Of a DNA stretch of 44,183 nt, positions 4,416 through 43,082 are shown in pieces. Both the position numbers and the translations under genes were made by a program. The notes beneath the pieces were generated by a model. It searched no databases. It had not been told where the DNA came from and saw only the letters and a program-made list of their open reading frames with translations. The stretch spans positions 1 through 44,183 of the forward strand of contig JACQCY010000011.1 of NCBI GenBank assembly GCA_016201355.1. The letters run 5' to 3'. Every line of letters starts with the position of its first letter. The first letter of the stretch is position 1. This DNA is from Candidatus Yonathbacteria bacterium. GTDB lineage: Bacteria; Patescibacteriota; Minisyncoccia; Phycocordibacterales; UBA1550.

Positions 4416-5216
4416 ATGTCAAAGAGTGGAATGTTTGGTCGCGTGAGATTTTTTGTGTATGATAGGGGAATGAAAGGAGATAGAGAAGACAAGGATATAC
4501 AAGGACATCTACATCCATTAACCCAAATTATGCGTGAAATCGTTGACTCATTTGTGGCAATGGGCTTTGAGGTTGCCGATGGCCCCGAGGTTGAGAGCGA
4601 GTATTACAACTTTGACGCGCTCAATGTGCCACAGGATCACCCTGCGCGCGATATGCAAGACACCTTTTGGGTCAAGGGAGTACCCAGCACCGTACTCCGT
4701 ACCCATACTTCATCAGTGCAGGCGCGCTATATGGAAAAGCATAAGCCGCCTTTTAAAATTGTCGTGCCGGGGAAAGTTTTCCGCTATGAAGCAACCGATG
4801 CGACGCACGAAGCTCAGTTTTATCAGATTGAAGGATTGGTTGTTGGTGAGGATATTTCTCTCGCCAACCTCAAACACACCCTCAATGAATTTTTTAAACG
4901 GCTCTATGGTCCAGAGGCAAACATTCGTTTTCGTCCATCGTTTTTCCCTTTCGTTGAACCTGGTGTTGAGGTAGATGTATCTTGTTTTAAATGTGATGGT
5001 AAGGGATGCGGTATGTGTAAACAGACAGGGTATATAGAAGTTATGGGGGCAGGGATGGTGCACCCTAATGTTTTGAAGTCTGGTGGTATTGACCCAAAAA
5101 AGTATAGCGGTTTTGCGTTTGGTACCGGCGTGGATCGTCTCGTTATGCTTAAATATGGTATTGACGATATTCGACTCCTCTATGCGGGAGATCTGCGCCT
5201 TGTGAATCAATTTTAG
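4416..5216 (+). CDS. pheS: Phenylalanine--tRNA ligase alpha subunit (short form; start uncertain)
   Basis: Class-II core motifs [67 protein letters not shown] and [11 protein letters not shown]. The long N-terminal coiled coil is absent. Possible starts are ATG 4416, 4431 or 4470. Confidence 0.9.
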
Positions 5217-5219
5217 AAA

Positions 5220-7154
5220 ATGAATATTTCAATTTCCTACAACTGGCTTAAGTCACATTTTGACAAGGACATTCCAAATTCTGGCGAGTTTGTTGGTATT
5301 CTCACAAAAAACCTCGCCGAGGTTGAGGGGGTGGAAATTCGCGGAGATGATACTATTTTTGATATAAAAATTATGCCTGATCGTGGGCACGATCTATTGT
5401 GTCACAAGGGAATCGCGCGCGAAGTTTCGGTGTTGAGCGGAGTACCACTTAAAAACGAAAAACGAAAAACGAAAAACAAAAAATCATCCCCAGCAACAAT
5501 GCTCCGCGTCTTTGTTGAAGATGTAAAACTTTGTCCGCGCTATATGGGGCTTGTGGTGGAGAATATCAAAGTAGGAGATTCGCCAGCGTGGCTTCGTACG
5601 CGCCTTGAGTCAGTGGGACAACGATCCATCAACAATATCGTGGACATTACGAACTTTGTAATGCTTGAAATAGGGCAGCCGATGCACGCATTTGACTTAG
5701 GCAAATTAGCAACCAACGACAAACAACAGACGACGATAGAAGTGCGAAAGGCGCGCGGAGGAGAGAAGATAACGACGCTTGATGAAAAAGAAATAATACT
5801 TACTCCCGATACGCTCGTCATTGCTGACAGTAATCAAGCGCTTGCCATTGCGGGGATAAAAGGAGGCAAGGACGCGGTGGTAGATGGCGCAACAACGAGT
5901 ATTATTTTTGAGGCGGCAAATTTTAATGCGGTACATACGCGCAAGACTGCGCAAAGAGTCGGTATCCGCACCGATTCATCAAAACGATTTGAACACGGAC
6001 TTTCGCCATCCTTGGTCTCTGATGCAATGTCTCTTGCGGTAGAGATGTTGGTTGAATTATGTCCCGATGCAATAGTTGGCGAAGCCATAGATGTGTATCC
6101 TGAGCCACAACAAGAGAAGACAATAACTATGAGCGTAAAAGATATAAACGGCATTCTTGGAACGACACTTTCGGGGGATGAAGTAGAGAAAATTCTCAAC
6201 CGTTTGGATTTTAAAAATGAACGCAGGGGAGAGATATTCGTCGTAACGCCACCTCTCCTTCGCCTTGACCTTGTTATCAAGGAGGATATTGCCGAGGAGA
6301 TTGGTCGTGTGTATGGATTTGATAAGGTCATTGATGCTCCGCTTCCTCCTCTTTCTTTTACTCCGAAACCACTCAAGGAATATTATTATGCAAATATGAT
6401 CCGCGACACACTCGTCGCGCAGGGTTTTTCGGAAGTATACACTTCGTCATTTCAAAAAGAGGGTGTGTTTGCAGTAGAAAATCCTCTTGCTCTCGATAAG
6501 GCATTTTTGCGAAAGGATCTGGCAACGAATATTAAGCAATCTCTCGAGCTCAATACGTATAATGCGCCACTCCTTGGACTTGATGAAATTAAGATTTTTG
6601 AAATTGGTAAAGCGTTTCCCGGAGTGATGCAGGAGAAACTTTTGTGCGTGATAGGTATTGAGATGGTGAAGACAAATAAAAAGAAAGCGGAAATTACGCG
6701 CGAGGCTCTTGAACAAGCGAGAACTCTTTTAGGTGAAATATTAGAAAATCCAATCGATGGGGAATTTTCTGAAAATATTTTTGAATTTGACCTTGGCGCT
6801 TTCTTGGATAAATTGCCTGAACCAAAAGCAGGGGAGCCTTTTACTTCTACGAGCACTCGCTACACGAAATTCTCTCCCTATCCATTTATGCTTCGCGACA
6901 TTGCCCTCTGGGTTCCCGAAGGAATCTCTGTAGATGATGTGCTCTCTGTTGTTTCAAGCGAAGCGGGCGAGCTTCTCCGCACGAAAAAGCTTTTTGATGT
7001 CTTCACGAAAGAATTTCCCGAAGGTAAAAAAACATCCTACGCTTTCAACCTCGTCTTTCAGTCATACGAAAAGACTCTTTCTGATGAAGAAATAAATAGC
7101 ATTATGGAACGCATTACCACCACGCTCTCAGCAAAAAGTTGGCAGGTGCGGTAG
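5220..7154 (+). CDS. pheT: Phenylalanine--tRNA ligase beta subunit (lacks the N-terminal OB-fold tRNA-binding domain)
   Basis: 644 aa, starting 3 nt after pheS. The B1 start MNISISYNWLKSHF runs directly into the B3-type segment DIKIMPDRGHDLLCHKGIAREV. The C-terminal anticodon-binding-like end is SPYPFMLRDIALWV...KTSYAFNLVFQ. Confidence 0.9.
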   Translation: MNISISYNWLKSHFDKDIPNSGEFVGILTKNLAEVEGVEIRGDDTIFDIKIMPDRGHDLLCHKGIAREVSVLSGVPLKNEKRKTKNKKSSPATMLRVFVEDVKLCPRYMGLVVENIKVGDSPAWLRTRLESVGQRSINNIVDITNFVMLEIGQPMHAFDLGKLATNDKQQTTIEVRKARGGEKITTLDEKEIILTPDTLVIADSNQALAIAGIKGGKDAVVDGATTSIIFEAANFNAVHTRKTAQRVGIRTDSSKRFEHGLSPSLVSDAMSLAVEMLVELCPDAIVGEAIDVYPEPQQEKTITMSVKDINGILGTTLSGDEVEKILNRLDFKNERRGEIFVVTPPLLRLDLVIKEDIAEEIGRVYGFDKVIDAPLPPLSFTPKPLKEYYYANMIRDTLVAQGFSEVYTSSFQKEGVFAVENPLALDKAFLRKDLATNIKQSLELNTYNAPLLGLDEIKIFEIGKAFPGVMQEKLLCVIGIEMVKTNKKKAEITREALEQARTLLGEILENPIDGEFSENIFEFDLGAFLDKLPEPKAGEPFTSTSTRYTKFSPYPFMLRDIALWVPEGISVDDVLSVVSSEAGELLRTKKLFDVFTKEFPEGKKTSYAFNLVFQSYEKTLSDEEINSIMERITTTLSAKSWQVR

Positions 7155-8944: not shown

Positions 8945-8950
8945 TTGAAT

Positions 8951-9619
8951 ATGTGTGGAATAACCGGCTTTATTAATAAGGGGAACAAAGACGAAATCAT
9001 CCGCAGAATGACGGATGCTATTATTTATCGTGGTCCCGACGATGATGGGTATTTCGTGGGTGGAGAGATAGCTCTCGGAATGCGCCGTCTCTCTATCATT
9101 GATCTTGAGGGCGGGAAACAACCGATTACTTCGCAGGATGAAAATTTCGTTATTGTTTTTAATGGTGAGATTTACAATTACCGCGCGCTCCGCGAGGATT
9201 TGATTCTGCGCGGGTACAAGTTCAAGACTCATACCGATACCGAGGTCGTCCTCCATCTTTTTGAAGCGGAGGGAAGCGCGTGTTTGAGTAAACTTCGCGG
9301 TATGTTTGCATTTGCCATTTTTGACAAACAATCACAGAAACTTTTTATCGCTCGTGATTTTTTTGGCATTAAACCGCTTTATTATCTTTTGAGTAGTGAC
9401 GGCAATATGCGCGCTTTTGGGTCTGAAATAAAGAGCATTTTGGCTATTCAGGGTGTGCCTCGTATGGTCAATGACGAAGCGGTACTCAACTATCTTTCCT
9501 TTCAGTATAATCCGCTTAAAGAAACTTTCTTTAAAAATATTTTCAAACTTGCGCCGGGGAGTTTTCTTGATATTGATATTGCGAGCGGAAAATTTGTTGA
9601 GAAAAAATATGATGAATAA
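8951..9619 (+). CDS. asnB: Asparagine synthase (glutamine-hydrolysing), N-terminal glutaminase-domain piece of a split gene
   Basis: MCGITGFI (Cys2 nucleophile), RGPDDDG, LGMRRLSIIDL, IVFNGEIYNY and HTDTEVVLH. It ends ...GKFVEKKYDE* with TAA at 9617-9619. Confidence 0.8.
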   Translation: MCGITGFINKGNKDEIIRRMTDAIIYRGPDDDGYFVGGEIALGMRRLSIIDLEGGKQPITSQDENFVIVFNGEIYNYRALREDLILRGYKFKTHTDTEVVLHLFEAEGSACLSKLRGMFAFAIFDKQSQKLFIARDFFGIKPLYYLLSSDGNMRAFGSEIKSILAIQGVPRMVNDEAVLNYLSFQYNPLKETFFKNIFKLAPGSFLDIDIASGKFVEKKYDE

Positions 9620-9675: not shown

Positions 9676-10629
9676 GTGACCGCGCGACACATTGGTACCG
9701 ACCATAAAGCCATCAACATATCGCGTGATGAATATTTTAGAGAAATCCCTAACATTGTGTGGCACTTTGACGAGCCGGTCGCCGACCCTTCTGCCGCGGC
9801 GCTTTATTTTGTCGCTCGCGAAGCGCGGAAAAAAGTAAAGGTGGTAATGTCGGGTGAAGGGGCGGATGAACTCTTTGGCGGATATAATATTTACCTTGAA
9901 TCCTATGCGCGTCGCAGACTTGCTCTCGTACCAAAGATTATTCGAGAAAATATTTTGCGCCCGCTCGCAGAGTCAAAGTATTCATTTCGTGGGAAAAATT
10001 TTCTCGTTCGTTTTTTTAGTTATTTGGAAGATTGGTATATTGGCAATGCGAATATTTTTACTCCGCGCGAAGTTGAGAATATGTGGAAAGGGGATACATA
10101 TGAGCGGATGAGTCTTGCTCCTCTTTATAAAAAAGTATCCGACCGCGATGACTCCGAAAAGATGCAGTACATTGACATCAATACTTGGCTTCCGGGGGAT
10201 ATTTTGGCAAAAGCAGACAAGATGACGATGGCTCATTCTCTTGAGCTTCGCGTGCCGTTTTTGGATCGCAATGTTTCTGATTTTGCGCGCCGTCTTCCTC
10301 CGAAATTAAAATGGAAAAATTACACCACTAAATATCTTTTGCGCTCTGTTGCGGATACTTTGCTTACTCCCGCAATCGCGCGGAGAAAAAAACTCGGCTT
10401 TCCTACCCCCGTAGGAAAGTGGTTTGACGCATCGCAAAAAGAGCTCTACCGTTCTATTGTTGAGAATACCTATATTCGGGAGCATTTCAATATGTCTGTC
10501 GTTCAAAAACTCATTGATGATCATATCTCTGGTCGCAAAAACAATGCACGCAAAATCTACCTCTTTCTCCTTTTTGCTCTCTGGTATGATATTTTCATCG
10601 GAGAGACAATGAAGGTGGGAAAAGAATAG
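9676..10629 (+). CDS. asnB: Asparagine synthase, C-terminal synthetase-domain piece (frame open from 9616); PP-loop absent
   Basis: ..STFTIGFDEVSEAREAEVTARHIGTDHKAI, MSGEGADELFGGY and DKMTMAHSLELRVPFLD. There is no SGGxDS ATP-pyrophosphatase loop in either piece. The only start codon is GTG 9676. Confidence 0.8.
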   Translation: MTARHIGTDHKAINISRDEYFREIPNIVWHFDEPVADPSAAALYFVAREARKKVKVVMSGEGADELFGGYNIYLESYARRRLALVPKIIRENILRPLAESKYSFRGKNFLVRFFSYLEDWYIGNANIFTPREVENMWKGDTYERMSLAPLYKKVSDRDDSEKMQYIDINTWLPGDILAKADKMTMAHSLELRVPFLDRNVSDFARRLPPKLKWKNYTTKYLLRSVADTLLTPAIARRKKLGFPTPVGKWFDASQKELYRSIVENTYIREHFNMSVVQKLIDDHISGRKNNARKIYLFLLFALWYDIFIGETMKVGKE

Positions 10630-26965: not shown

Positions 26966-28348
26966 ATGAAATGCAAGATAGTCCATCCTGTGTTTGCCAA
27001 GAAAGAAGTCATCATAGGTAATCCGCAATCTCCCATAGCGGTGGGTACCTTATGGTCGCAAGTGGATCACTTTTGCAAGAATCATCTCGACGGCTTGATG
27101 GACAAGATTGCCATCGTTGGTAATATTCGTTCCGTCTATGGCATTGGCATTGTAATTAGGAATTGCCTTGCCAATCCCAACATACAGAAACTCGTTGTAA
27201 GTGGGGTGGCAACATCAGATGGTTCCCTTTTAGCCCTAAAGAGATTATCGACCGATCCTTCTTTGTGCGAGACTTTTTTTCTAAGTCATCGGCACATAGA
27301 AAGATTCCTTCAGCAGGTTGAAATTATTTATCTTAACCCTGAAGAGGTCGCAGATTTTGTGGGTAAAGAATTTCTCTCACCCAAGAAGGTTTTTAAACCA
27401 TGGGTGACTTCGTTACTTGTTCCGAAGACAAAGGTCTTTCCTGCGGCAGAGTCAGGGCACCTCATAAGGGCTACAACCATCAAGGAGGGATACGAAGCAC
27501 TCTTAAAAGAGATTCGGCTCTTCGGTCATCTTCTAAAAGAAGACTCTGAAGGGAACATCCGCCAAGAGCTTTGGAAGCTGAATATGGTGATAACGAATCA
27601 AGATCCTCTGGCTTTTGATTCTGTTCCCCATTCAGAATACAATGCCTCGCATATAAAAAAATATTGCGAGGACTTCTGGATTGGCTCCCCCCCTGATGGC
27701 GTTGAATATCGTTACGGCCACATCATTAGATTTGGTTTTGGTGATCAGGTGGAGGCCGTTATCAAAGCTTTTAAGGAAAAGGTGGAGACTTTCCGGACCG
27801 TGATCTCTCTTTGGGATCCACGAGTCGAGGGGGGGTCTATCACAGCAAAAGACCCACCATGCATTACCTTGATTCATCCCAGAATCATAGGGGAGAACCT
27901 GCGCCTTACGGCGTATATTCGAACGAACGATATGTTCGGCGGTTGGCCACTCAACGCTATGGCACTCCGCTATTTTCAGTATCAGCTCTTAGAGAGACTG
28001 AAGATAGAGTTGAAGCGCCCGGAATTAAAATTGGGAGATCTCGAAGTAACTTCCGCTTCAGCCCATATTTATTCCCGGGACTGGAAGAAAATAGAGGCTC
28101 TTCTGAAGAAAGTAGGGCCTCAAAAATTCTCCCCAGACCCAAAGGGAAATTTCCAGATTAAGGTAGAGGGTGGAGAGATTGTCGTTTGGCACTTCAGTCC
28201 GGACGGTGAAAAATTGCTCCAGGTTTTCCGCGGGAAGAATGCGGAAGAATTGAGCAGAAAACTTAAACCGTTCATCTCCGATATCGGAAACGCCCTGTAT
28301 GTCGGGCGAGAGTTGAAAAAAGCGGAACAATCCCTCGGACCATCATAG
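26966..28348 (+). CDS. Thymidylate synthase-like protein with an N-terminal MtrA-N-like module and a C-terminal DUF4346-like module
   Basis: ThyA-fold signatures in order: YRYGH, DQVEAVI, RTVISLWDP, nucleophile Cys in DPPCITL (27860-27862), IRTNDMFGGWPLN (Asn at 27953-27955) and SAHIY. The N-terminus is IIGNPQSPIAVGTLWS..IAIVGNIRSVYGIGIVIRNCLANPNIQKLVVSG. The C-terminus is DPKGNFQIKV..IVVWHF..ALYVGRELKKAE. SD AAGGAGGAGG lies at 26951-26960, and the ATG is 1 nt after the deaminase stop. Confidence 0.8.
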   Translation: MKCKIVHPVFAKKEVIIGNPQSPIAVGTLWSQVDHFCKNHLDGLMDKIAIVGNIRSVYGIGIVIRNCLANPNIQKLVVSGVATSDGSLLALKRLSTDPSLCETFFLSHRHIERFLQQVEIIYLNPEEVADFVGKEFLSPKKVFKPWVTSLLVPKTKVFPAAESGHLIRATTIKEGYEALLKEIRLFGHLLKEDSEGNIRQELWKLNMVITNQDPLAFDSVPHSEYNASHIKKYCEDFWIGSPPDGVEYRYGHIIRFGFGDQVEAVIKAFKEKVETFRTVISLWDPRVEGGSITAKDPPCITLIHPRIIGENLRLTAYIRTNDMFGGWPLNAMALRYFQYQLLERLKIELKRPELKLGDLEVTSASAHIYSRDWKKIEALLKKVGPQKFSPDPKGNFQIKVEGGEIVVWHFSPDGEKLLQVFRGKNAEELSRKLKPFISDIGNALYVGRELKKAEQSLGPS

Positions 28349-29297: not shown

Positions 29298-31013
29298 ATG
29301 ATACGGGAACAATTACGAGGATTAATACAGAACGCGCTCCATAGCTTGAATCTTGAGGAAGAGATAGTGGAGCTTGAGCAAACCACCGACCCTCTTCATG
29401 GGGATTATGCTACGAATGTTGCGCTTATGTACGCGAAAAAAGCGGGACTTAATCCGCGAGAACTTGCACAAAGAATTACCGAGGAACTTTCGCGCGCTCC
29501 GTCAAGTGATATTGAAAAGATTGAAATTGCCGGTCCCGGATTTATCAATTTCAGACTCTCTGATGAATACTTCTCTGGGGCTCTTGATAACGCTCTCAAG
29601 AAAAGTAAAAAATGGGGAAATAACGAAACGCTCGCTGGGAAAAAAGTTATTGTTGAATATGCCGACCCGAATCCATTCAAGGAATTTCATATCGGACATT
29701 TGATGTCGAACACTATCGGTGAGTCTATTGCGCGAATCATTGAGGCGAGTGGGGCAGATACGAAGCGAGCGTGTTATCAAGGGGATGTGGGGATGCATGT
29801 GGCGAAAGCGGTGTGGGGGATGATTTGGATACCAAATGAAAGCGGTAAACCAAAAAAGCCATCCGACGATGCTTCATTGCAAAAAAAAATATCATTTATC
29901 GCAGAGTCTTATGCGTTTGGGGCAACAGCTTTTGAAGCGAACCCTAGTGTGAAGGAACAAATAGCAGGGATTAATAAAAATATTTATTCTCGTGAGGGTC
30001 CTCAAACGAATGAAATCTATGATTGGGGACGCAAGGTAAGCCTCGATTATTTTGAAACGATCTACAAAAAACTCGGTACAAAATTTGATTTCAACTTTTT
30101 TGAATCACAGACCGGTGAGTTTGGGAAAAAAGTCGTTCTTGAAAATCCTGCAATTTTTGAAAAAAGTGATGGCGCTATTGTCTATAAAGGAGATGAATCG
30201 AAAGGGTTGCATACGCGCGTATTTATAAACTCCGAAGGACTTCCTACCTACGAATCAAAGGAACTTGGACTGGCAAAAATTAAATACGATATCTACCCCT
30301 ATGATACCTCTATTGTGATTACGGGGAATGAAGTCAACGATTATTTCAGGGTAATTTTGGACGCAATGTCAAAAGTTTTTCCCGAGCTTGCAAAAAAGAC
30401 CGTTCATATTTCGCACGGGATGCTTCGTCTGCCGTCCGGCAAGATGTCCTCGCGTACGGGGGATGTGATCACCGCAGAATCTCTCATCGCAGACACAAAA
30501 GAAAGGGCACTTGCAAAAATTTCTCAAGAAGCATTTTTGCAAGGAGAAAAAGACATACTCGCGGAAAAGGTTGCTCTTGGCGCTATCAAGTATTCGATTT
30601 TGAAACAAGCATCGGGTAAAGATATTATTTTTGATTTTGAACAATCACTTTCGTTTGAGGGGGACTCCGGCCCGTATTTGCAGTACACCTATGCCCGCAC
30701 CCGCTCTCTTTTGGAAAAAGCAAAAGGGCGTGATATCGATGTTCTTTTCAAGCGCACTGAAACTAATGCGCTTCACAAGGTGATACTTCATTTCCCAGAG
30801 ATTGTTTTGCGCGCGAATGAAGAACGAGAACCGCATTTCATTGCAACATATTTAATTGAGCTTGCGCGTGAATTTAATTCTTTTTATGCGCATACTATTG
30901 TTCTCAATGACGCGCCAGATGAACCGCACAAGCTTGCTCTCGTAAAAGCGGTTTCTCAAACGCTTGAAAATGGCCTTAATCTACTCGGCATCTCTGCCCC
31001 CGAGCGAATGTAA
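29298..31013 (+). CDS. argS: Arginine--tRNA ligase
   Basis: 571 aa with HIGH-type FHIGHLMS, GMLRLPSGKMSSRTGDVI, and a DALR-type anticodon-binding C-terminus. Confidence 0.93.
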   Translation: MIREQLRGLIQNALHSLNLEEEIVELEQTTDPLHGDYATNVALMYAKKAGLNPRELAQRITEELSRAPSSDIEKIEIAGPGFINFRLSDEYFSGALDNALKKSKKWGNNETLAGKKVIVEYADPNPFKEFHIGHLMSNTIGESIARIIEASGADTKRACYQGDVGMHVAKAVWGMIWIPNESGKPKKPSDDASLQKKISFIAESYAFGATAFEANPSVKEQIAGINKNIYSREGPQTNEIYDWGRKVSLDYFETIYKKLGTKFDFNFFESQTGEFGKKVVLENPAIFEKSDGAIVYKGDESKGLHTRVFINSEGLPTYESKELGLAKIKYDIYPYDTSIVITGNEVNDYFRVILDAMSKVFPELAKKTVHISHGMLRLPSGKMSSRTGDVITAESLIADTKERALAKISQEAFLQGEKDILAEKVALGAIKYSILKQASGKDIIFDFEQSLSFEGDSGPYLQYTYARTRSLLEKAKGRDIDVLFKRTETNALHKVILHFPEIVLRANEEREPHFIATYLIELAREFNSFYAHTIVLNDAPDEPHKLALVKAVSQTLENGLNLLGISAPERM

Positions 31014-31107: not shown

Positions 31108-34100
31108 ATGGAGAATGAGGGGAAAAAACTTTCAAGTATTGCGCAAAGGGAAGAGGAAATCCTCTCTTTTTGGCGTGAGAAAAAAATCTTTGAGAAGACT
31201 CTTGAGCAAACGGAACATGGAGAAGCTTTTTCTTTTTATGATGGACCACCGTTTGCGACCGGAGTCCCTCACTATGGGCATATTGTTACGAGCGCTATAA
31301 AAGACGCGATTCCTCGCTATCAAACAATGTGCGGACGCCATGTTCGTCGTGTGTGGGGGTGGGACTGTCACGGGCTTCCTATCGAGAATCTCATAGAGGG
31401 AGAGCTGGGACTTCCACACAAAAAAGATATTGAGGAGTACGGTATTGGGAAATTTAATGAAGCGGCGCGCGCTTCGGTACTGCGCTACGATTCGTTATGG
31501 AAAGAAATGATTCCGCGTATTGGACGATGGATCGATATGGAGCATTCCTACAAGACGATGGACGCTTCTTATACCGAGTCGGTGTGGTGGGCTTTCAAAA
31601 CTCTGTATGAAAAAGGACTCATCTATCAAGGGTTCAAAGCAATGCAAATTTGCCCGCGCTGTGAGACGACACTCTCAAATAATGAAGTTGCGGACGGGTA
31701 CAAAGATATTACGGATATTTCGGTGACGGTGAAGTTTGAACTCGAAGAATCGAACACCAAAAACCTAACACCTAAAACCTATGTTTTGGCATGGACGACA
31801 ACACCGTGGACACTTCCGGGAAATGTGGCATTAGCGGTGAATTCGGATGAGGAATACATAAAGGTTTCAATAGGAACTGAAAAATATATTTTAGCGAAAG
31901 AACGCGCAGAGAAAATACTTGCAGGGAAAGAATATGAAATTATCTCACGGGTAAAAGGAAAGGATCTTGTTGGTAAGAAATACAAACCAATCTTTGATTA
32001 TTATTCAAAAGACGAATCTCTTGCCAACCATAAAAATGGTTGGAAAATATATGGCGCGGATTTTGTGACAATGGACAGCGGTACGGGGGTGGTACATATT
32101 GCGCCTGCTTTTGGCGAGGACGATATGGCTCTCGGCAAGAAAGAAAATTTGCCATTCATTCAACATATTTCAATGGATGGCATAATGAAAAAAGAGGTGC
32201 GTGATTTCGCCGGTGTTTCTGCAAAACCAAAAACAAAAGAGAAAGACGGACACCAATCGACAGATATTTTAATCATTAAACATCTTGCGGGGGTAGGCGC
32301 GCTCTTTTCAAAAGAAAAAATAATCCACGCATACCCTCATTGTTGGCGATGCGATACCCCACTCCTCAATTACGCCACGGAGTCGTGGTTTGTGAAAGTT
32401 ACCGATCTTAAGGGAAGACTTGTTGAGGAAAACGCAAAGACAAAGTGGGTCCCTGAAAATTTGCGCGACGGTCGTTTTGGTCAGTGGCTCCTAGGCGCGC
32501 GCGATTGGGCAATTTCTCGCTCACGGTTCTGGGGCGCGCCACTGCCGGTATGGAATTGTGATTCTTGTGAAAAGAGAAGCGTCTTTGGTTCGCGAGCAGA
32601 ATTAGCTCAGGCTACCAGAAAATCAGGAAATAAATATTTTGTAATGCGTCATGGAGAAGCTGAAAGCAATAGGGAGCGCATTGTCAGTTCAACTATTGCC
32701 ACGGGCAACAGTCACGGACTTACCGAGAAGGGAAGAAAAGAGGTAAAAGAGGCTAGTCAACGACTCGATCGAGAATCGATACAAATCATCATCTCCTCGC
32801 CTTTTCTTCGTGCAAGACAGACGGCAGAAAGTGTTGCAGATACGCTCGGGCTTAATTCAAAAGAAATAATCATCGACGAACGGCTCAAGGAGATAGACAC
32901 GGGTGTTTTTGACGGTAAATCCATTGATGATTATCGTGGATATTTTGCCTCAATGCGCGAGAAATTTATCAAGCGTCCTGAGAAGGGAGAAAATCTTCTC
33001 GATGTAAAGCGTCGTGTTATGGAGCTTATGGACGAGCTCGAAGAAAAATATCAAGGTAAAAATATTTTACTCGTAACTCATGAATATCCTCTCTGGATGA
33101 TTACCTCAGGAGTAGAAGGAGCGGATGTTGATCGAGCACTCGGAATAAAAGAGGGGAATGATGATTTTATAAAAACGGGAGAAATAAAAGAGATACCTTT
33201 TACCTTATTCCCCCACAATGCTGAATATGAATTTGATATGCATCGTCCCTATATTGATAATGTTCCTGTTGTGTGTTCGTGCGGGGGGAAAATGCTCCGT
33301 GTACCCTATGTCTTTGACTGTTGGTTTGAATCCGGTTCTATGCCGTATGCGCAATTTCATTATCCATTTGAGAACAAGGAATTGTTTGAAAAAAATTTCC
33401 CTGCGAATTTTATTGCCGAGGGAATCGATCAGACGCGCGGATGGTTCTATAATATGCTCAATCTCTCGGTGGGACTTTTTGGAAAAGCTCCCTTTAAAAA
33501 TGTACTCGTGAATGGTCTTGTCCTTGCCGAGGATGGACAGAAGATGTCAAAGCGTCTTAAAAATTATCCAGATCCGCTTGATATTATCAACAGATATGGC
33601 GCAGATGCGATGCGGTATTATCTATTGTCGTCACCGCTCGTTCATGCGGAGGATTTTGCTTTTTCTGAGAAAGGAGTGGATGAGGTGGTAAAGAAAGTGC
33701 TTATGCGTCTTCTCAATGTCCTCTCGTTTTACGAGCTTCATAAGTCAAAGAAGGGTGAATCAAAAAATACCAAAGAAAATATTTTAGATCAATGGATATT
33801 ATCTCGCCTCGCAGAACTTGGCAATGAGATGACGCTCTCCTTGGATAAATATGAACTCGAACGTGCGATAAAACCAATTGGGCTTTTCGTTGACGACCTC
33901 TCCACCTGGTACCTTCGCCGTTCACGGGATCGATTTAAGTCAGACGATGAAGAGGAGCGCACGCAAGCGATAGAAACAACACGAGAAGTATTTTTTGAGT
34001 TTTCAAAATTGATAGCTCCCATAATGCCATTTATGGCGGATCATATTTATTTAAAAATGGAAGGAGAAAAAGAGAGCGTGCATTTGGAAGAATGGCCTGT

Positions 34101-34602
34101 TTTTAGTGAGCCAAACCAAGATGCTCTCGCGTGGATGAAACAAATAAGACAAATTGTTTCCCTAGCTCTTGAGGCTCGCGCAAAAGCTGAGATAAAAGTG
34201 CGCCAACCGCTACACGAGTTAAAAGTTAAAAGTGGAAAGTTGAAAGTGGGATACGCGGAACTTATTAAAGACGAGGTAAATGTAAAAGAAGTCGTATTTG
34301 ACGATGCAATGTCCGAAGAAGTGGAGCTTGATACTATTATTACCCCGGAGCTCAAACAAGAGGGGCAATTTCGCGAGCTTGCGCGCGCGGTGCAAGAGCT
34401 TCGCAAGACAAAAGGACTTACGCCATCGGATATGGCGACACTTGAGATTGGGGCGGACGAAGAGGGACGCGCTCTCGTTGATGCATTTAGCGACGAACTC
34501 AAAAAAACATCACTTCTAAATGAAATTGTGTTTAAAGAGGTGCAAGGCGAGTCAGTGGATGCAAATGGCATTTTGTTTACGATAGCGTTAAGTAGAAAAT
34601 AG
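31108..34602 (+). CDS. ileS: Isoleucine--tRNA ligase (type 2) carrying an inserted histidine-phosphatase domain
   Basis: HIGH = PHYGHIV, editing domain TTPWTLPGN, WAISRSRFWGAPLPVW, FDCWFESGSMPYAQ, EGIDQTRGWFY and KMSKRL. At 1164 aa it is longer than usual because of the insert at 32620-33207. Confidence 0.93.
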   Translation: MENEGKKLSSIAQREEEILSFWREKKIFEKTLEQTEHGEAFSFYDGPPFATGVPHYGHIVTSAIKDAIPRYQTMCGRHVRRVWGWDCHGLPIENLIEGELGLPHKKDIEEYGIGKFNEAARASVLRYDSLWKEMIPRIGRWIDMEHSYKTMDASYTESVWWAFKTLYEKGLIYQGFKAMQICPRCETTLSNNEVADGYKDITDISVTVKFELEESNTKNLTPKTYVLAWTTTPWTLPGNVALAVNSDEEYIKVSIGTEKYILAKERAEKILAGKEYEIISRVKGKDLVGKKYKPIFDYYSKDESLANHKNGWKIYGADFVTMDSGTGVVHIAPAFGEDDMALGKKENLPFIQHISMDGIMKKEVRDFAGVSAKPKTKEKDGHQSTDILIIKHLAGVGALFSKEKIIHAYPHCWRCDTPLLNYATESWFVKVTDLKGRLVEENAKTKWVPENLRDGRFGQWLLGARDWAISRSRFWGAPLPVWNCDSCEKRSVFGSRAELAQATRKSGNKYFVMRHGEAESNRERIVSSTIATGNSHGLTEKGRKEVKEASQRLDRESIQIIISSPFLRARQTAESVADTLGLNSKEIIIDERLKEIDTGVFDGKSIDDYRGYFASMREKFIKRPEKGENLLDVKRRVMELMDELEEKYQGKNILLVTHEYPLWMITSGVEGADVDRALGIKEGNDDFIKTGEIKEIPFTLFPHNAEYEFDMHRPYIDNVPVVCSCGGKMLRVPYVFDCWFESGSMPYAQFHYPFENKELFEKNFPANFIAEGIDQTRGWFYNMLNLSVGLFGKAPFKNVLVNGLVLAEDGQKMSKRLKNYPDPLDIINRYGADAMRYYLLSSPLVHAEDFAFSEKGVDEVVKKVLMRLLNVLSFYELHKSKKGESKNTKENILDQWILSRLAELGNEMTLSLDKYELERAIKPIGLFVDDLSTWYLRRSRDRFKSDDEEERTQAIETTREVFFEFSKLIAPIMPFMADHIYLKMEGEKESVHLEEWPVFSEPNQDALAWMKQIRQIVSLALEARAKAEIKVRQPLHELKVKSGKLKVGYAELIKDEVNVKEVVFDDAMSEEVELDTIITPELKQEGQFRELARAVQELRKTKGLTPSDMATLEIGADEEGRALVDAFSDELKKTSLLNEIVFKEVQGESVDANGILFTIALSRK
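32620..33207 (+). other. In-frame inserted domain inside ileS: histidine phosphatase (phosphoglycerate-mutase-like) superfamily
   Basis: Signature elements in order: YFVMRHGEAESN, SSPFLRARQTAE, ERLKEIDTGVFDG and ILLVTHEYPLWMI. The insert is flanked by collinear IleRS sequence (..SRAELAQATRKS | ..FDMHRPYIDNVP). Confidence 0.75.
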
Positions 34603-34685
34603 TAAATAGTAAGTAGAAAATAGAATAAATTCAAAAATTCTATTTCTCATTCCCTCTTCTACTTACTACTTTCTATTTACTATTT
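34597..34685. repeat. Family-B word hairpin (copy 3) overlapping the ileS stop codon
   Basis: Three perfect stem segments: 34597-34609 with 34673-34685 (13 bp), 34609-34618 with 34657-34666 (10 bp), and 34619-34626 with 34637-34644 (8 bp). The exact 21-mer lies at 34605-34625. Confidence 0.78.
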
Positions 34686-34701: not shown

Positions 34702-35289
34702 ATGTCCCACCATATTTACCACACACGAGGGATTATCTTGGGCAGTATTGCTATTGGTGAAGCGAATAGATTTTATAAAATTTTTACCGAGGAGCTCGGG
34801 CTTGTTTGGGTGTCTGCTCAGTCTGTTCGTATGGAAAAATCAAAGCTCCGTTACTCCTTACAGCACTATGTATGGGTCACACTTGATTTGGTAAAGGGGC
34901 GCGAAGTGTGGCGCATTACGAGTGCCCAAGAAGATGTAATACACACAATTCTTCGGACGGATACAAAACATTTTAAGATGTTTGCAGAGATATGCGCGCT
35001 TGTCTCGCGTATGGTTCACGGTGAAAGGCAAGAAGAAGGGCTTTTTAAAGATCTTTTTGAATTGGCAAATTTTCTCGAACAGAAGGAAATCCCTGATGAT
35101 CTCGTACAATCTTTCCAAGTTTTTGCCTCCGCGCGGGTGTTGGCATGGTTGGGGTATTTTGATGATTCTCTTAATGAGCAATTCACCAAGACGGATAAAT
35201 GGTCTATTGATATGCTCAAAATTTTTGAAAAGGAGAGAGAGGCAGTCTCTCTTAAAATCGATGAAGCGCTCCACGCTTCGCATTTATAG
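34702..35289 (+). CDS. recO: DNA repair protein RecO (short, no zinc finger)
   Basis: The N-terminal OB-fold pattern HTRGIILGSIAIGEANRFYKIFTEELGLVWVSAQSVRMEKSKLRYSLQ..VKGREVWRITSAQ resembles RecO. Assignment is by pattern only. Confidence 0.55.
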   Translation: MSHHIYHTRGIILGSIAIGEANRFYKIFTEELGLVWVSAQSVRMEKSKLRYSLQHYVWVTLDLVKGREVWRITSAQEDVIHTILRTDTKHFKMFAEICALVSRMVHGERQEEGLFKDLFELANFLEQKEIPDDLVQSFQVFASARVLAWLGYFDDSLNEQFTKTDKWSIDMLKIFEKEREAVSLKIDEALHASHL

Positions 35290-41537: not shown

Positions 41538-43082
41538 ATGGATAAAAAATTTTACATTACTGCGCCGATTTTTTACGCCAATGCGAAACTCCATATGGGG
41601 CACGCTTATTCACTCGTACTGTCGGATATCCTCGCGCGGTATCATCGTACAATAGGGGAGAAAACTTTTTTTGTTTCGGGAGCCGATGAGCACGGCGACA
41701 AGATCGTCCGCGCGGCGCAAAAAGAGGGTTTGGGACCGCAGGTTTTTGTGAATATTAAATTCGATGAGTTTAAAGAGCTCTCGGGCAAGCTCGGCATCTC
41801 GAACGATTTCTTTGTGCGGACATCGGACAAAGAATGTCATTGGCCCGGCGCTCAAAAACTTTGGCGCGCGCTTCTAGAAGCGGGTGATGTTTACAAGGAT
41901 GCTTATAAAGGTCTTTATTGCGTTGGGTGCGAGGCATTTATCACCGAGCATGAACTCGTAGACGGCAAGTGTCCACATCACGATACGGTTCCCGAGTCCA
42001 TCTCAGAAGAAAATTATTTTTTTAAGCTTTCAAAATATGCTCTGGAAATAAGGCAATTGATCAACGAGCGGAAGCTTAAAATCACTCCACACAGCAAGGC
42101 GAATGAGATGATCGCGCTTATTGATGAGGGGCTTAGTGATGTCAGCATTTCTCGCCCGGAAAAGGAAATTCCTTGGGGAGTTCCTGTTCCTGGTGACTCC
42201 TCTCATTTTATGTATGTATGGTGCGATGCGCTTTCAAGCTACCTTTCTGCTCTCGGATACGGGGGAGAAGACGATACAAACTTTCGTGAATTTTGGCCTG
42301 CAAATGTTCAGGTCATCGGTAAAGATATTATGCGTTTTCATACGCTCCTCTGGCCAGCTCTTCTCCTTTCCGCAAAGCTCCCCCTTCCTCAGGAGATTTT
42401 TGTGCACGGGTTTATCACTTCGGGAGGCAAGAAAATGTCAAAGTCAATCGGTAATGTTCTTGATCCTTATGAATTTATAAACGAATATGGGCTTGATGCT
42501 TTGCGTTACTATCTTGCGCGCGAAGTGGTCCCTACCGAAGACGGGGATTTGACCCACGAGAGATTTAAAGAAATTTATAATGCCAACCTCGCAAACGGCA
42601 TAGGAAATCTGGTCTCTCGCACGCTCAAGATGGCAGAGCAGTATTTTGGAGGAAACATCGCGGGGCAAAGAGAGAGCGTTCCTCCGCTCCGTACGCGCGC
42701 AGTTTTTGAAACTTCTGAGACGGAGATTGGTGGGTTTAATATTCCCTTTATCATTCAAAACAATATCCTTCCTCGTTACCATACTCATATGCAGGGCAAT
42801 GAAATCAATAAAGCGGCTGATGTGGTGTGGGAACTGGTGAGCCACCTCGATCACTTCATCACGGATTATGAACCATTCAAGCTTATAAAAACGGACAAAG
42901 AGATGACGGGAAAAGTTTTATGGGGGGTTATTGAGGGGATATTGCAGATTACGGATATGCTTATTCCCCTAATGCCCGATACGGCGCAAAAAATACGAGA
43001 GCTTATTAAAACAGAGGAGAAAGATGGAGAAACAACTTTTATCACAAAGACACCGGCAGAACCGTTGTTTGGTAGAAAATAG
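41538..43082 (+). CDS. metG: Methionine--tRNA ligase (no C-terminal tRNA-binding domain)
   Basis: HIGH-type ANAKLHMGHAYS, KMSKSIGN, and zinc knuckle CVGC..CPHH. Confidence 0.93.
   Translation: MDKKFYITAPIFYANAKLHMGHAYSLVLSDILARYHRTIGEKTFFVSGADEHGDKIVRAAQKEGLGPQVFVNIKFDEFKELSGKLGISNDFFVRTSDKECHWPGAQKLWRALLEAGDVYKDAYKGLYCVGCEAFITEHELVDGKCPHHDTVPESISEENYFFKLSKYALEIRQLINERKLKITPHSKANEMIALIDEGLSDVSISRPEKEIPWGVPVPGDSSHFMYVWCDALSSYLSALGYGGEDDTNFREFWPANVQVIGKDIMRFHTLLWPALLLSAKLPLPQEIFVHGFITSGGKKMSKSIGNVLDPYEFINEYGLDALRYYLAREVVPTEDGDLTHERFKEIYNANLANGIGNLVSRTLKMAEQYFGGNIAGQRESVPPLRTRAVFETSETEIGGFNIPFIIQNNILPRYHTHMQGNEINKAADVVWELVSHLDHFITDYEPFKLIKTDKEMTGKVLWGVIEGILQITDMLIPLMPDTAQKIRELIKTEEKDGETTFITKTPAEPLFGRK

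Follow-up and report, generated by a model that had tools for sequence, protein, structure and literature searches.

A predicted histidine phosphatase domain nested in the CP3 zinc knuckle of isoleucyl-tRNA synthetase from Candidatus Yonathbacteria and related bacteria

Few enzymes have been studied as closely as the aminoacyl-tRNA synthetases (aaRS), whose accessory domains for editing, tRNA binding and signalling have each opened a field. In isoleucyl-, valyl- and leucyl-tRNA synthetases (IleRS, ValRS and LeuRS) the connective peptide 1 (CP1) editing domain, and in bacterial ProRS the INS domain, is a complete hydrolytic domain set into the catalytic core, and the host fold continues on both sides. 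Among the branch-1 histidine phosphatases of about 200 aa, the broad-specificity phosphatase PhoE (YhfR) of Geobacillus stearothermophilus (1EBB/1H2E) and the metal-independent phosphoserine phosphatase PspA of Hydrogenobacter thermophilus (4IJ5/4IJ6) carry the catalytic set RHG...N, R, E and H. Here we describe a stretch of 44,183 nucleotides (the window) from Candidatus Yonathbacteria bacterium (GCA_016201355.1, contig JACQCY010000011.1, positions 1–44,183, forward strand), in which ileS encodes an IleRS whose catalytic core contains an insert of the same length, branch and catalytic set as PhoE and PspA.

We determined the family of the insert by profile comparison. The Pfam profile His_Phos_1 (PF00300) matched aa 511–678 (nt 32638–33141) with E = 1.3e-35 in the context of the whole protein, and the insert alone gave E = 4.8e-37 and 128 bits, above the cut-off of 21.7, over profile positions 2–167 of 194. 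All elements of the histidine phosphatase catalytic core, namely the histidine of the RHG motif, two phosphate-binding arginines, the second histidine and the acidic donor, were present. In 120 orthologues, R514, H515, N521, R568 and E595 were conserved at 100% and H658 at 99%, and S564, T572, E628 and R636 were likewise conserved at 100%. A set of 159 nested domains taken from full-length proteins gave a similar result, with R514, H515 and R568 retained in 159 and E595 and H658 in 158 each. The mean column conservation of the insert in the 120 orthologues was 0.64, versus 0.83 for the first Rossmann half. The residue after the second histidine was glutamate in the nested forms (E659, 95% of close orthologues), whereas it was mostly glycine in the free forms. 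These conservation patterns indicate strong purifying selection on the active-site residues of the phosphatase.

The predicted fold agreed with this assignment. The AlphaFold2 (AF2) model of the full-length protein had a predicted local distance difference test score (pLDDT) of 84.6 and a predicted template modelling score (pTM) of 0.73, with the blocks of the insert at 88–96, and the domain modelled alone reached a pLDDT of 94.8 and a pTM of 0.91. The first and last β-strands of the modelled domain (aa 509–514 and 693–696) form the chain entry and exit, as would be expected of a nestable domain. The top Foldseek matches of the domain were PspA, PhoE, the mycobacterial GpgP Rv2419c, a riboflavin-pathway histidine phosphatase (HFP) and CobC, with template modelling (TM) scores of 0.75–0.82; the root mean square deviations to PspA, PhoE, Rv2419c and CobC were 2.2–3.0 Å, and true phosphoglycerate mutases were poorer matches (target TM-score, TMt, 0.55–0.67). 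These models indicate that the domain is a confident autonomous fold, superposable on solved branch-1 histidine phosphatases.

In regards to the identity of the phosphatase, the insert was compared with the curated NCBIfam models of characterised subfamilies. The scores rejected an identity as dPGM (NF038349 dPGM_arch, 99 bits against a cut-off of 225; TIGR01258, 21.8 against 81.7), CobC (TIGR03162, 79.9 against 162.9), PspA (NF045917, 74.7 against 350) and SixA (TIGR00249, 44.4 against 74.5), and the curated cut-off for GpmB was not reached either. Comparison of profiles and models narrows the insert to the class of about 200 aa that includes PhoE, PspA and GpgP. Because none of these cut-offs was reached and the fold matches are small-molecule phosphatases, the predicted substrate class was left as a small phosphomonoester, unspecified.

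The conserved catalytic residues and the modelled fold together suggest that the nested domain is very probably an active phosphatase. Alternatively, the domain might be catalytically silent and serve as a structural, ligand-sensing or RNA-binding module, in which the phosphate pocket would bind a phosphorylated ligand or the RNA backbone and thereby modulate IleRS. The residues of the phosphate pocket would stay conserved in a pure binder too, and the H-E dipeptide of the nested forms in place of the usual H-G is compatible with such a role. However, a pure binder would have no need of the full set, in which N521 and H658, like the nucleophile H515 and the proton donor E595, show little or no variation, and the fold superposes on active phosphatases with TM scores of about 0.8. 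We consider a silent domain improbable.

The host protein was examined in the same manner. The window IleRS, deposited in the public collection as a class I tRNA ligase of Candidatus Yonathbacteria (P0042), scored 886.7 bits against the TIGR00392 ileS equivalog, well above its cut-off of 621.4, and its Pfam tRNA-synt_1 match was split by the insert. The HYGH, KMSKR and WTTTPWT residues were invariant among relatives in a 67-sequence alignment. The models of the mupirocin-resistance enzymes MupA and MupB (NF000257 and NF000258) gave 712–742 bits against a cut-off of 1900, which indicates that the window IleRS is of the same type-2 lineage as MupA and MupB but is neither of them. The ileS_w_GNAT model (NF040702) gave 323 bits against a cut-off of 1999, and no acetyltransferase match was found in the window IleRS in the Pfam and NCBIfam profile scans. 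Together, these comparisons identify the host as a type-2 (eukaryote-like) IleRS that is complete and whose HIGH, KMSKS and editing motifs are intact. The GC content of the insert was 0.413 against 0.439 for the remaining ileS, without a visible break in composition; the GC content at third codon positions was 0.342 in the insert (32620–33207), below the 0.416 of the rest of ileS. An antisense open reading frame (ORF) of 195 aa (34047–34634, − strand) lies wholly inside the 3′ end of ileS; its translation is serine-rich and of low complexity, and it is almost certainly spurious.

We located the insert by alignment to solved IleRS structures. Query residues 10–494 aligned to residues 9–469 of the IleRS2 chain 8c8u and query residues 702–1103 to residues 479–891; because the alignment resumes only 10 residues further on in the chain, about 200 residues stand in place of about 10. 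In the insert-free IleRS proteins of two related loci from the Candidate Phyla Radiation (CPR), L004 and L087, only about 15–20 residues separate the "GS.xEL" and "HRPYID" blocks. The domain thus stands in place of about 10–20 residues of the CP3 hairpin. CP3 is a peripheral, structurally variable subdomain of IleRS. Its topology varies between IleRS lineages, it has a zinc-binding motif in the Thermus thermophilus enzyme, and it comprises residues 473–534 in the Candida IleRS 6ldk (PMC7191050). The insert is flanked by the cysteine pairs C484/C487 and C723/C725, and window residue 503 aligns to residue 499 of 6ldk, which places the phosphatase within the CP3 zinc-knuckle hairpin. These alignments indicate that this hairpin of the window IleRS is interrupted by a whole branch-1 histidine phosphatase. 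The C-terminal linker was strongly conserved in the 120 orthologues (P702 95%, H703 95%, N704 90%, E708 92% and D710 93%); the AF2 pLDDT over this linker was 87–90, and both linkers were modelled confidently in the full-length model.

An earlier note on this DNA had proposed an unbroken 1164-aa ileS with a complete histidine-phosphatase domain at aa 505–700, type-2 IleRS sequence collinear on both sides, and a surface location near the zinc knuckle. The ORF and its translation reproduced its coordinates exactly; the His_Phos_1 match confirmed a complete domain, its signature elements lay where the note had put them, and the 8c8u alignment, the TIGR00392 score and the two CP3 cysteine pairs agreed with the proposed setting. 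Its suggestion of a probably active phosphatase in an autonomous globule is likewise consistent with the PF00300 match, the near-invariance of the catalytic residues in 159 nested copies and the confident AF2 model of the isolated domain. The roles that the note put forward, namely a phosphatase of tRNA ends, hydrolysis of a phosphorylated metabolite or inhibitor, and regulation by phospho-His chemistry, are conjectural, and the nearest structural relatives of the domain are phosphatases of small molecules. The features are summarized in Table 1.

Table 1. Coordinates of ileS, its parts and motifs, and its two neighbouring genes in the window.
Feature	Position (nt)	Strand	Remarks
argS	29298..31013	+	Upstream neighbour of ileS; part of a conserved argS-(phos)-ileS-recO block
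ileS	31108..34602	+	Single stop-free 1164-aa ORF; type-2 IleRS with predicted nested phosphatase domain
IleRS N-terminal part, aa 1–504	31108..32619	+	First Rossmann half, CP core, CP1 editing domain, CP2, N-side of CP3
HYGH (HIGH motif)	31270–31281	+	In IleRS N-terminal part
WTTTPWT (CP1 editing motif)	31792–31812	+	In IleRS N-terminal part
First Cys pair of CP3 zinc knuckle, C484-D-S-C487 (C-x2-C)	32557..32568	+	Both Cys at least 90% conserved
Nested histidine phosphatase domain, aa 505–700	32620..33207	+	Translation KSGNKYFVMRHGEAESN...IKEIPFTL; from Pfam, AF2 and Foldseek
RHGEAESN: R514, nucleophile H515, G516, N521	32647..32670	+	Conserved
R568, phosphate-pocket Arg in SSPFLRARQTAE	32809..32811	+	100% conserved
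E595, predicted proton donor (KEIDTG)	32890..32892	+	100% in orthologues
H658, second active-site His (LLVTHEYP)	33079..33081	+	99% in orthologues
C-terminal linker FTLFPHNAEYEFDM, aa 698–711	33199..33240	+	Conserved; not in insert-free IleRS of L004 and L087
IleRS C-terminal part, aa 701–1164	33208..34602	+	C-side of CP3, second Rossmann half, anticodon-binding domain, C-terminal DUF5915 domain
Second Cys pair of CP3 zinc knuckle, C723-S-C725 (C-x-C)	33274..33282	+	From sequence and 67-sequence alignment
KMSKR (KMSKS motif)	33541–33555	+	Second Rossmann half
recO	34702..35289	+	Downstream neighbour of ileS; 195 aa, RecO_N only; same conserved block

To establish how widely the architecture occurs, its recurrence was determined in protein and genome collections. 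Each of the 120 best full-length homologues (57–72% identity, 1150–1231 aa) carried both PF00133 and PF00300, and Parcubacteria and Yonathbacteria genomes from 2015–2016 were among their sources. When GTDB was scanned with one genome per species, a relative turned up in at least 427 species. Among these loci the 80 best were examined, and all 80 were collinear in the order ileS-N, domain and ileS-C; the names among them include Yonath-, Nomura-, Wolfe-, Campbell-, Lloyd- and Magasanikbacteria and Paceibacteria. Of the 65 complete loci in this set, 62 had an unbroken frame of 1100 codons or more. IleRS flanks were found in 103 of 106 long domain-bearing proteins, always in the identical order, which was also kept in long-read-style assemblies with fragmented gene calls. 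In the loci L001 and L003, all genes including ileS were shattered into many short ORFs, as is typical of indel-rich long-read assemblies, and gene calls shattered in this way explain why the initial homologue search returned only fragments. The architecture also bears on annotation: at NCBI, many of these proteins currently go by no more than "class I tRNA ligase family protein", and fragments by "histidine phosphatase family protein". These results indicate that the nested architecture is a conserved trait of a large clade of Paceibacteria (Parcubacteria).

The same results bear on the explanation that the insert is an artefact of assembly or annotation, or that it can be removed, being an intein, a mobile insertion or the like, so that the mature IleRS would lack it. 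Inteins and insertions in essential genes do occur in CPR genomes, the linker contains an H703-N704 dipeptide near the C-terminal junction, and one relative (P0209) carries an in-frame IS200-like segment in its IleRS. On the other side, the same in-frame architecture was found in more than 100 independent assemblies, including long-read-style ones, and this recurrence together with the intact frames rules out a chimeric assembly. In regards to an intein, the window IleRS gave no Hint or intein match in Pfam, the residue after H703-N704 is alanine in the window and alanine, glutamate or aspartate in most orthologues, and residues 509–696 are all accounted for by the phosphatase fold. A mobile element is rejected by the absence of a transposase profile match in the window IleRS and of a compositional break. 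The explanation is effectively refuted. The note's remark that no HN precedes the junction was slightly off, although the residue after the dipeptide and the profile scan agree with its view that this is no intein. Its expectation that the insert stays in the mature enzyme fits the lack of intein features.

The genes around ileS point to the probable source of the domain. In L004, on an 804-kb contig, a 185-aa protein that is 40% identical to the insert (P0016) is encoded between argS and an insert-free ileS of 959 aa, 8 bp upstream of the latter, with recO downstream. The genes beyond ileS in L004 match the order of the window, with recO followed by a DUF11/CLIPPER protein, a class II aaRS, an M16 peptidase and an AI-2E transporter. 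The loci L006 and L087/L088 repeat the order argS, phosphatase gene, ileS and recO, and the insert-free IleRS proteins of L004, L006 and L087 have 959–965 aa. Beside this block in L006, a LAGLIDADG-type ORF with a weak Pfam match (4681–5106, − strand) lies between the genes of IF3 and SmpB.

A metagenome scan seeded with the free-standing clade found at least 403 relatives, of which the best 80 were classified. The phosphatase was free and directly upstream of ileS in 45 loci and nested in ileS in 24 (L127 being counted as nested); eight loci had other arrangements, three of them with ileS 0.6–2 kb away, and three were cut by a contig end. Where both flanks of a free metagenome locus were readable (n = 28), ileS adjoined the gene in 22 (79%) and argS in 19, and the gene lay between argS and ileS in 18 metagenome loci, as it does in L004 and L087. 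No second copy of the domain was found within the 7-kb flanks of the 80 nested GTDB loci, and the window holds one copy. These gene orders indicate that, in sister lineages, the free-standing genes most closely related to the domain immediately precede an ileS that lacks the insert. In the simplest reading, a gene resident between argS and ileS would have been captured into CP3, a permissive loop, of its downstream neighbour. That the insert is a real, conserved and catalytically competent nested phosphatase derived from a neighbouring gene is a conclusion in which we have high confidence.

An exhaustive search gave representatives of several variant architectures. Two His_Phos domains at two sites of IleRS were found in P0231, P0254 and P0272, two in tandem in P0292 and P0299, and four in P0175. 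In such multi-copy IleRS proteins, either CP3 holds the domains as a tandem array or they also occupy a second site immediately ahead of the anticodon-binding domain (about aa 860–1055); the copies are highly divergent from each other. Another insertion hotspot of IleRS lies upstream of ADFIAEGxDQTRGWF and holds an AAA_18 kinase-like domain in P0250 or a GNAT domain in P0209. In P0250, which carries His_Phos and this P-loop AAA_18 domain at the second hotspot, the AAA_18 segment gave only generic matches of the APS/shikimate-kinase-like type (E of about 0.02). P0209 combines His_Phos with GNAT and an in-frame IS200-like Y1_Tnp segment (aa 340–461), and its GNAT gave only a generic match of the MSMEG_0567 type.

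The phosphatase was also found joined to other enzymes. P0261 (689 aa) is an ArgRS with Arg_tRNA_synt_N, tRNA-synt_1d and DALR_1 domains and the same phosphatase at its C-terminus; it is a candidate fusion, and represents a third arrangement of the trio of argS, phosphatase and ileS. A fusion of TsaC (Sua5/YrdC) with His_Phos recurred in four clusters (P0181 and P0310–P0312). The partners of TsaC in Patescibacteria (P0181, P0310–P0426) are MGMT (PF01035, the most common), TruB, 2H/CPDase phosphoesterases, Nudix, GNAT, methylpurine (DNA) glycosylase and His_Phos. Fusion of housekeeping enzymes is evidently common in CPR genomes, and is not by itself evidence of a common mechanism.

We propose that the product of ileS would be a bifunctional protein. 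The phosphatase would form an autonomous globule whose termini are brought together by its first and last β-strands, so that the IleRS chain would run on undisturbed. A phosphomonoester would be hydrolysed through a phospho-H515 intermediate, with R514, R568 and H658 holding the phosphate and E595 acting as the proton donor (acid/base). The substrate would most likely be a small metabolite, and the phosphatase would act apart from the synthetic and editing sites. Nesting would mainly tie the phosphatase to an essential enzyme, with which it would necessarily be made 1:1, in a streamlined, fusion-prone genome. Independence of the phosphatase is favoured because TsaC is fused in these genomes to many unrelated enzymes and because the unrelated recO belongs to the same syntenic block. 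We put functional independence from aminoacylation at about an even chance. For the interpretation as a whole, that is, a phosphomonoesterase acting on a small metabolite independently of both sites and with its expression fixed by nesting, we judge the chance to be even or slightly better.

Several observations weigh against this interpretation. The neighbour-joining tree of nested and free domains was star-like, and some of the "free" entries are probably contig fragments; excision of a nested domain, rather than capture of a free one, would be compatible with such a tree, which does not separate the two. The insert reached no NCBIfam equivalog cut-off for any characterised phosphatase subfamily, and its sequence points to no particular substrate. 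One phosphatase clade is joined to three tRNA-linked enzymes that convert ATP to AMP and pyrophosphate (PPi), namely IleRS, ArgRS (P0261) and TsaC (the four clusters above). The pair of phosphatase gene and ileS is slightly more conserved than that of argS and phosphatase gene, although the difference (22 versus 19 of the 28 loci) is marginal. The linkers are conserved and confidently modelled. The association with three enzymes, the pairing with ileS and the linkers could indicate mechanistic coupling rather than mere co-expression.

In a coupled system, the phosphatase would take part in the aminoacylation or adenylate chemistry of IleRS, and likewise of ArgRS and TsaC, either by removing a 3′- or 2′-phosphate from damaged tRNA ends before charging, or by clearing a product or ligand that adenylate-forming enzymes have in common, such as PPi, AMP or a phosphorylated inhibitor. 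It would then be a second accessory catalytic module of IleRS alongside CP1. Apart from the linkers and the fusions to the three enzymes, this explanation is consistent with the adjacency of 79% of the assessable free-standing genes to ileS, with the fusion of CPR TsaC to 2H/CPDase RNA-end enzymes, and with the second-best NCBIfam match of the insert, to the phosphatase part of PRK07238, a bifunctional RNase H/acid phosphatase. However, the closest relatives of the insert in sequence and structure are all small-molecule phosphatases, and neither tRNA ends nor PPi are, as far as we are aware, a known substrate of any histidine phosphatase. Fusions in CPR genomes are promiscuous and often join unrelated functions, as in TsaC-MGMT, and the many unrelated partners of TsaC weaken the TsaC-His_Phos fusion as support for a tRNA-related theme. 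The synteny of argS, phosphatase gene, ileS and recO takes in the unrelated recO, and divergent arrays of two to four domains would fit diversified substrates better than one dedicated step. We regard coupling as a tentative and rather unlikely alternative to an independent phosphatase. A broader proposal seems to us unlikely, namely that translation has in this phosphatase a new accessory catalytic module. Enzymes that form adenylates and are linked to tRNA would have recruited it repeatedly, by nesting in IleRS, by fusion to ArgRS or TsaC, or as a gene between argS and ileS, and its substrate would be tied to their chemistry, for example 3′- or 2′-phosphorylated tRNA ends that are healed before charging, or a phosphorylated product or inhibitor that is removed at the active site. 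If true, an aaRS would have a second domain for quality control or repair, on the same logic as CP1 editing.

The remaining genes of the window agree with a further point of the earlier note, that this genome otherwise trims the appendages of its synthetases. PheS has 266 aa (4416–5216), PheT 644 aa (5220–7154) and MetG 514 aa (41538–43082), and RecO consists of RecO_N only; because these proteins are short in the same window, the gain of about 200 aa in ileS stands out. Two other observations were made. Asparagine synthase is encoded in two ORFs on the + strand that are 56 nt apart, a GATase_7 of 224 aa (8945–9619) and an Asn_synthase of 317 aa (9676–10629), which could reflect a frameshift or pseudogene or a genuinely split gene. 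A 460-aa ORF (26966–28348, + strand) has an MtrA-like N-terminus and a PterinBD-DUF4346 C-terminus, together with a partial match to Thymidylat_synt; this unusual thymidylate-synthase-like architecture adjoins the genes of dCMP deaminase and thymidylate kinase.

The significance of the locus is that the catalytic core of IleRS houses another whole enzyme, from a superfamily unrelated to its own. Hundreds of uncultivated CPR species have kept this second enzyme with its active site intact, and some have two to four copies. The sister lineages with a separate phosphatase gene beside an insert-free ileS offer a natural control for the origin of the domain, the tolerance of CP3 and the question of coupling. 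Coupling to charging would make the phosphatase an accessory activity of a kind new to aaRS. Without coupling, it would still be a clear natural case of domain nesting, of use to protein engineers and informative on the way in which ultra-small genomes fit functions into essential genes.

In comparison with known systems, the host is an ordinary type-2 IleRS and the guest an ordinary phosphatase of the PhoE/PspA class, and the combination appears to be undescribed. No description of a histidine phosphatase inside an aaRS was found in the literature. The sequences, with automatic Pfam matches, have been public since 2015, and the architecture is apparently undescribed in print; the earlier note, which knew of no such IleRS, agrees with this as to publications, although the insert is shared by a whole clade and is thus no peculiarity of this genome. 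PhoE and PspA were the best PDB sequence matches of the insert (E = 7.5e-14 and 2.6e-13, respectively) and its best fold matches (TM scores of 0.76–0.82). They are free-standing and soluble and only 23–26% identical to the insert, whereas the nested form has H-E in place of H-G and conserved linkers into IleRS. The CP1 and INS domains have mischarged tRNA or adenylate as substrates and are old, universal features of their families, whereas the His_Phos insert is confined to certain lineages, comes from a superfamily unrelated to them and is not known to be linked to editing.

Covalent partners have been described for both enzymes. The RNase HI/CobC-like acid phosphatases of PRK07238, such as Rv2228c of Mycobacterium tuberculosis and SCO2299 of Streptomyces coelicolor, resemble the insert in joining a branch-1 histidine phosphatase covalently to a nucleic-acid enzyme. 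In contrast to the insert, they are end-to-end fusions with RNase H as the partner; the insert scored 94.7 bits, below the equivalog cut-off of 326 bits, and is nested in an aaRS. The ileS_w_GNAT family (NF040702) is a curated precedent for an IleRS equipped with a further enzymatic domain, and His_Phos and GNAT occur together in P0209; the extra domain of this family, however, is GNAT and not a phosphatase, and the GNAT of P0209 occupies a different site from the CP3 insert. In regards to the host, the type-2 IleRS enzymes of Priestia megaterium (IleRS2, 8C8U/8C8V), T. thermophilus (1ILE) and yeast/Candida (8WND and 6LDK) are collinear with the window IleRS outside aa 495–701, with E-values down to 1e-228 and Foldseek TMt values of 0.77–0.84. 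The host shares with them the HIGH, KMSKS and CP1 editing motifs and a CP3 zinc knuckle like that of T. thermophilus. At the CP3 site, the solved IleRS structures have at most a short hairpin, whereas the host is predicted to carry a second enzyme of about 200 residues.

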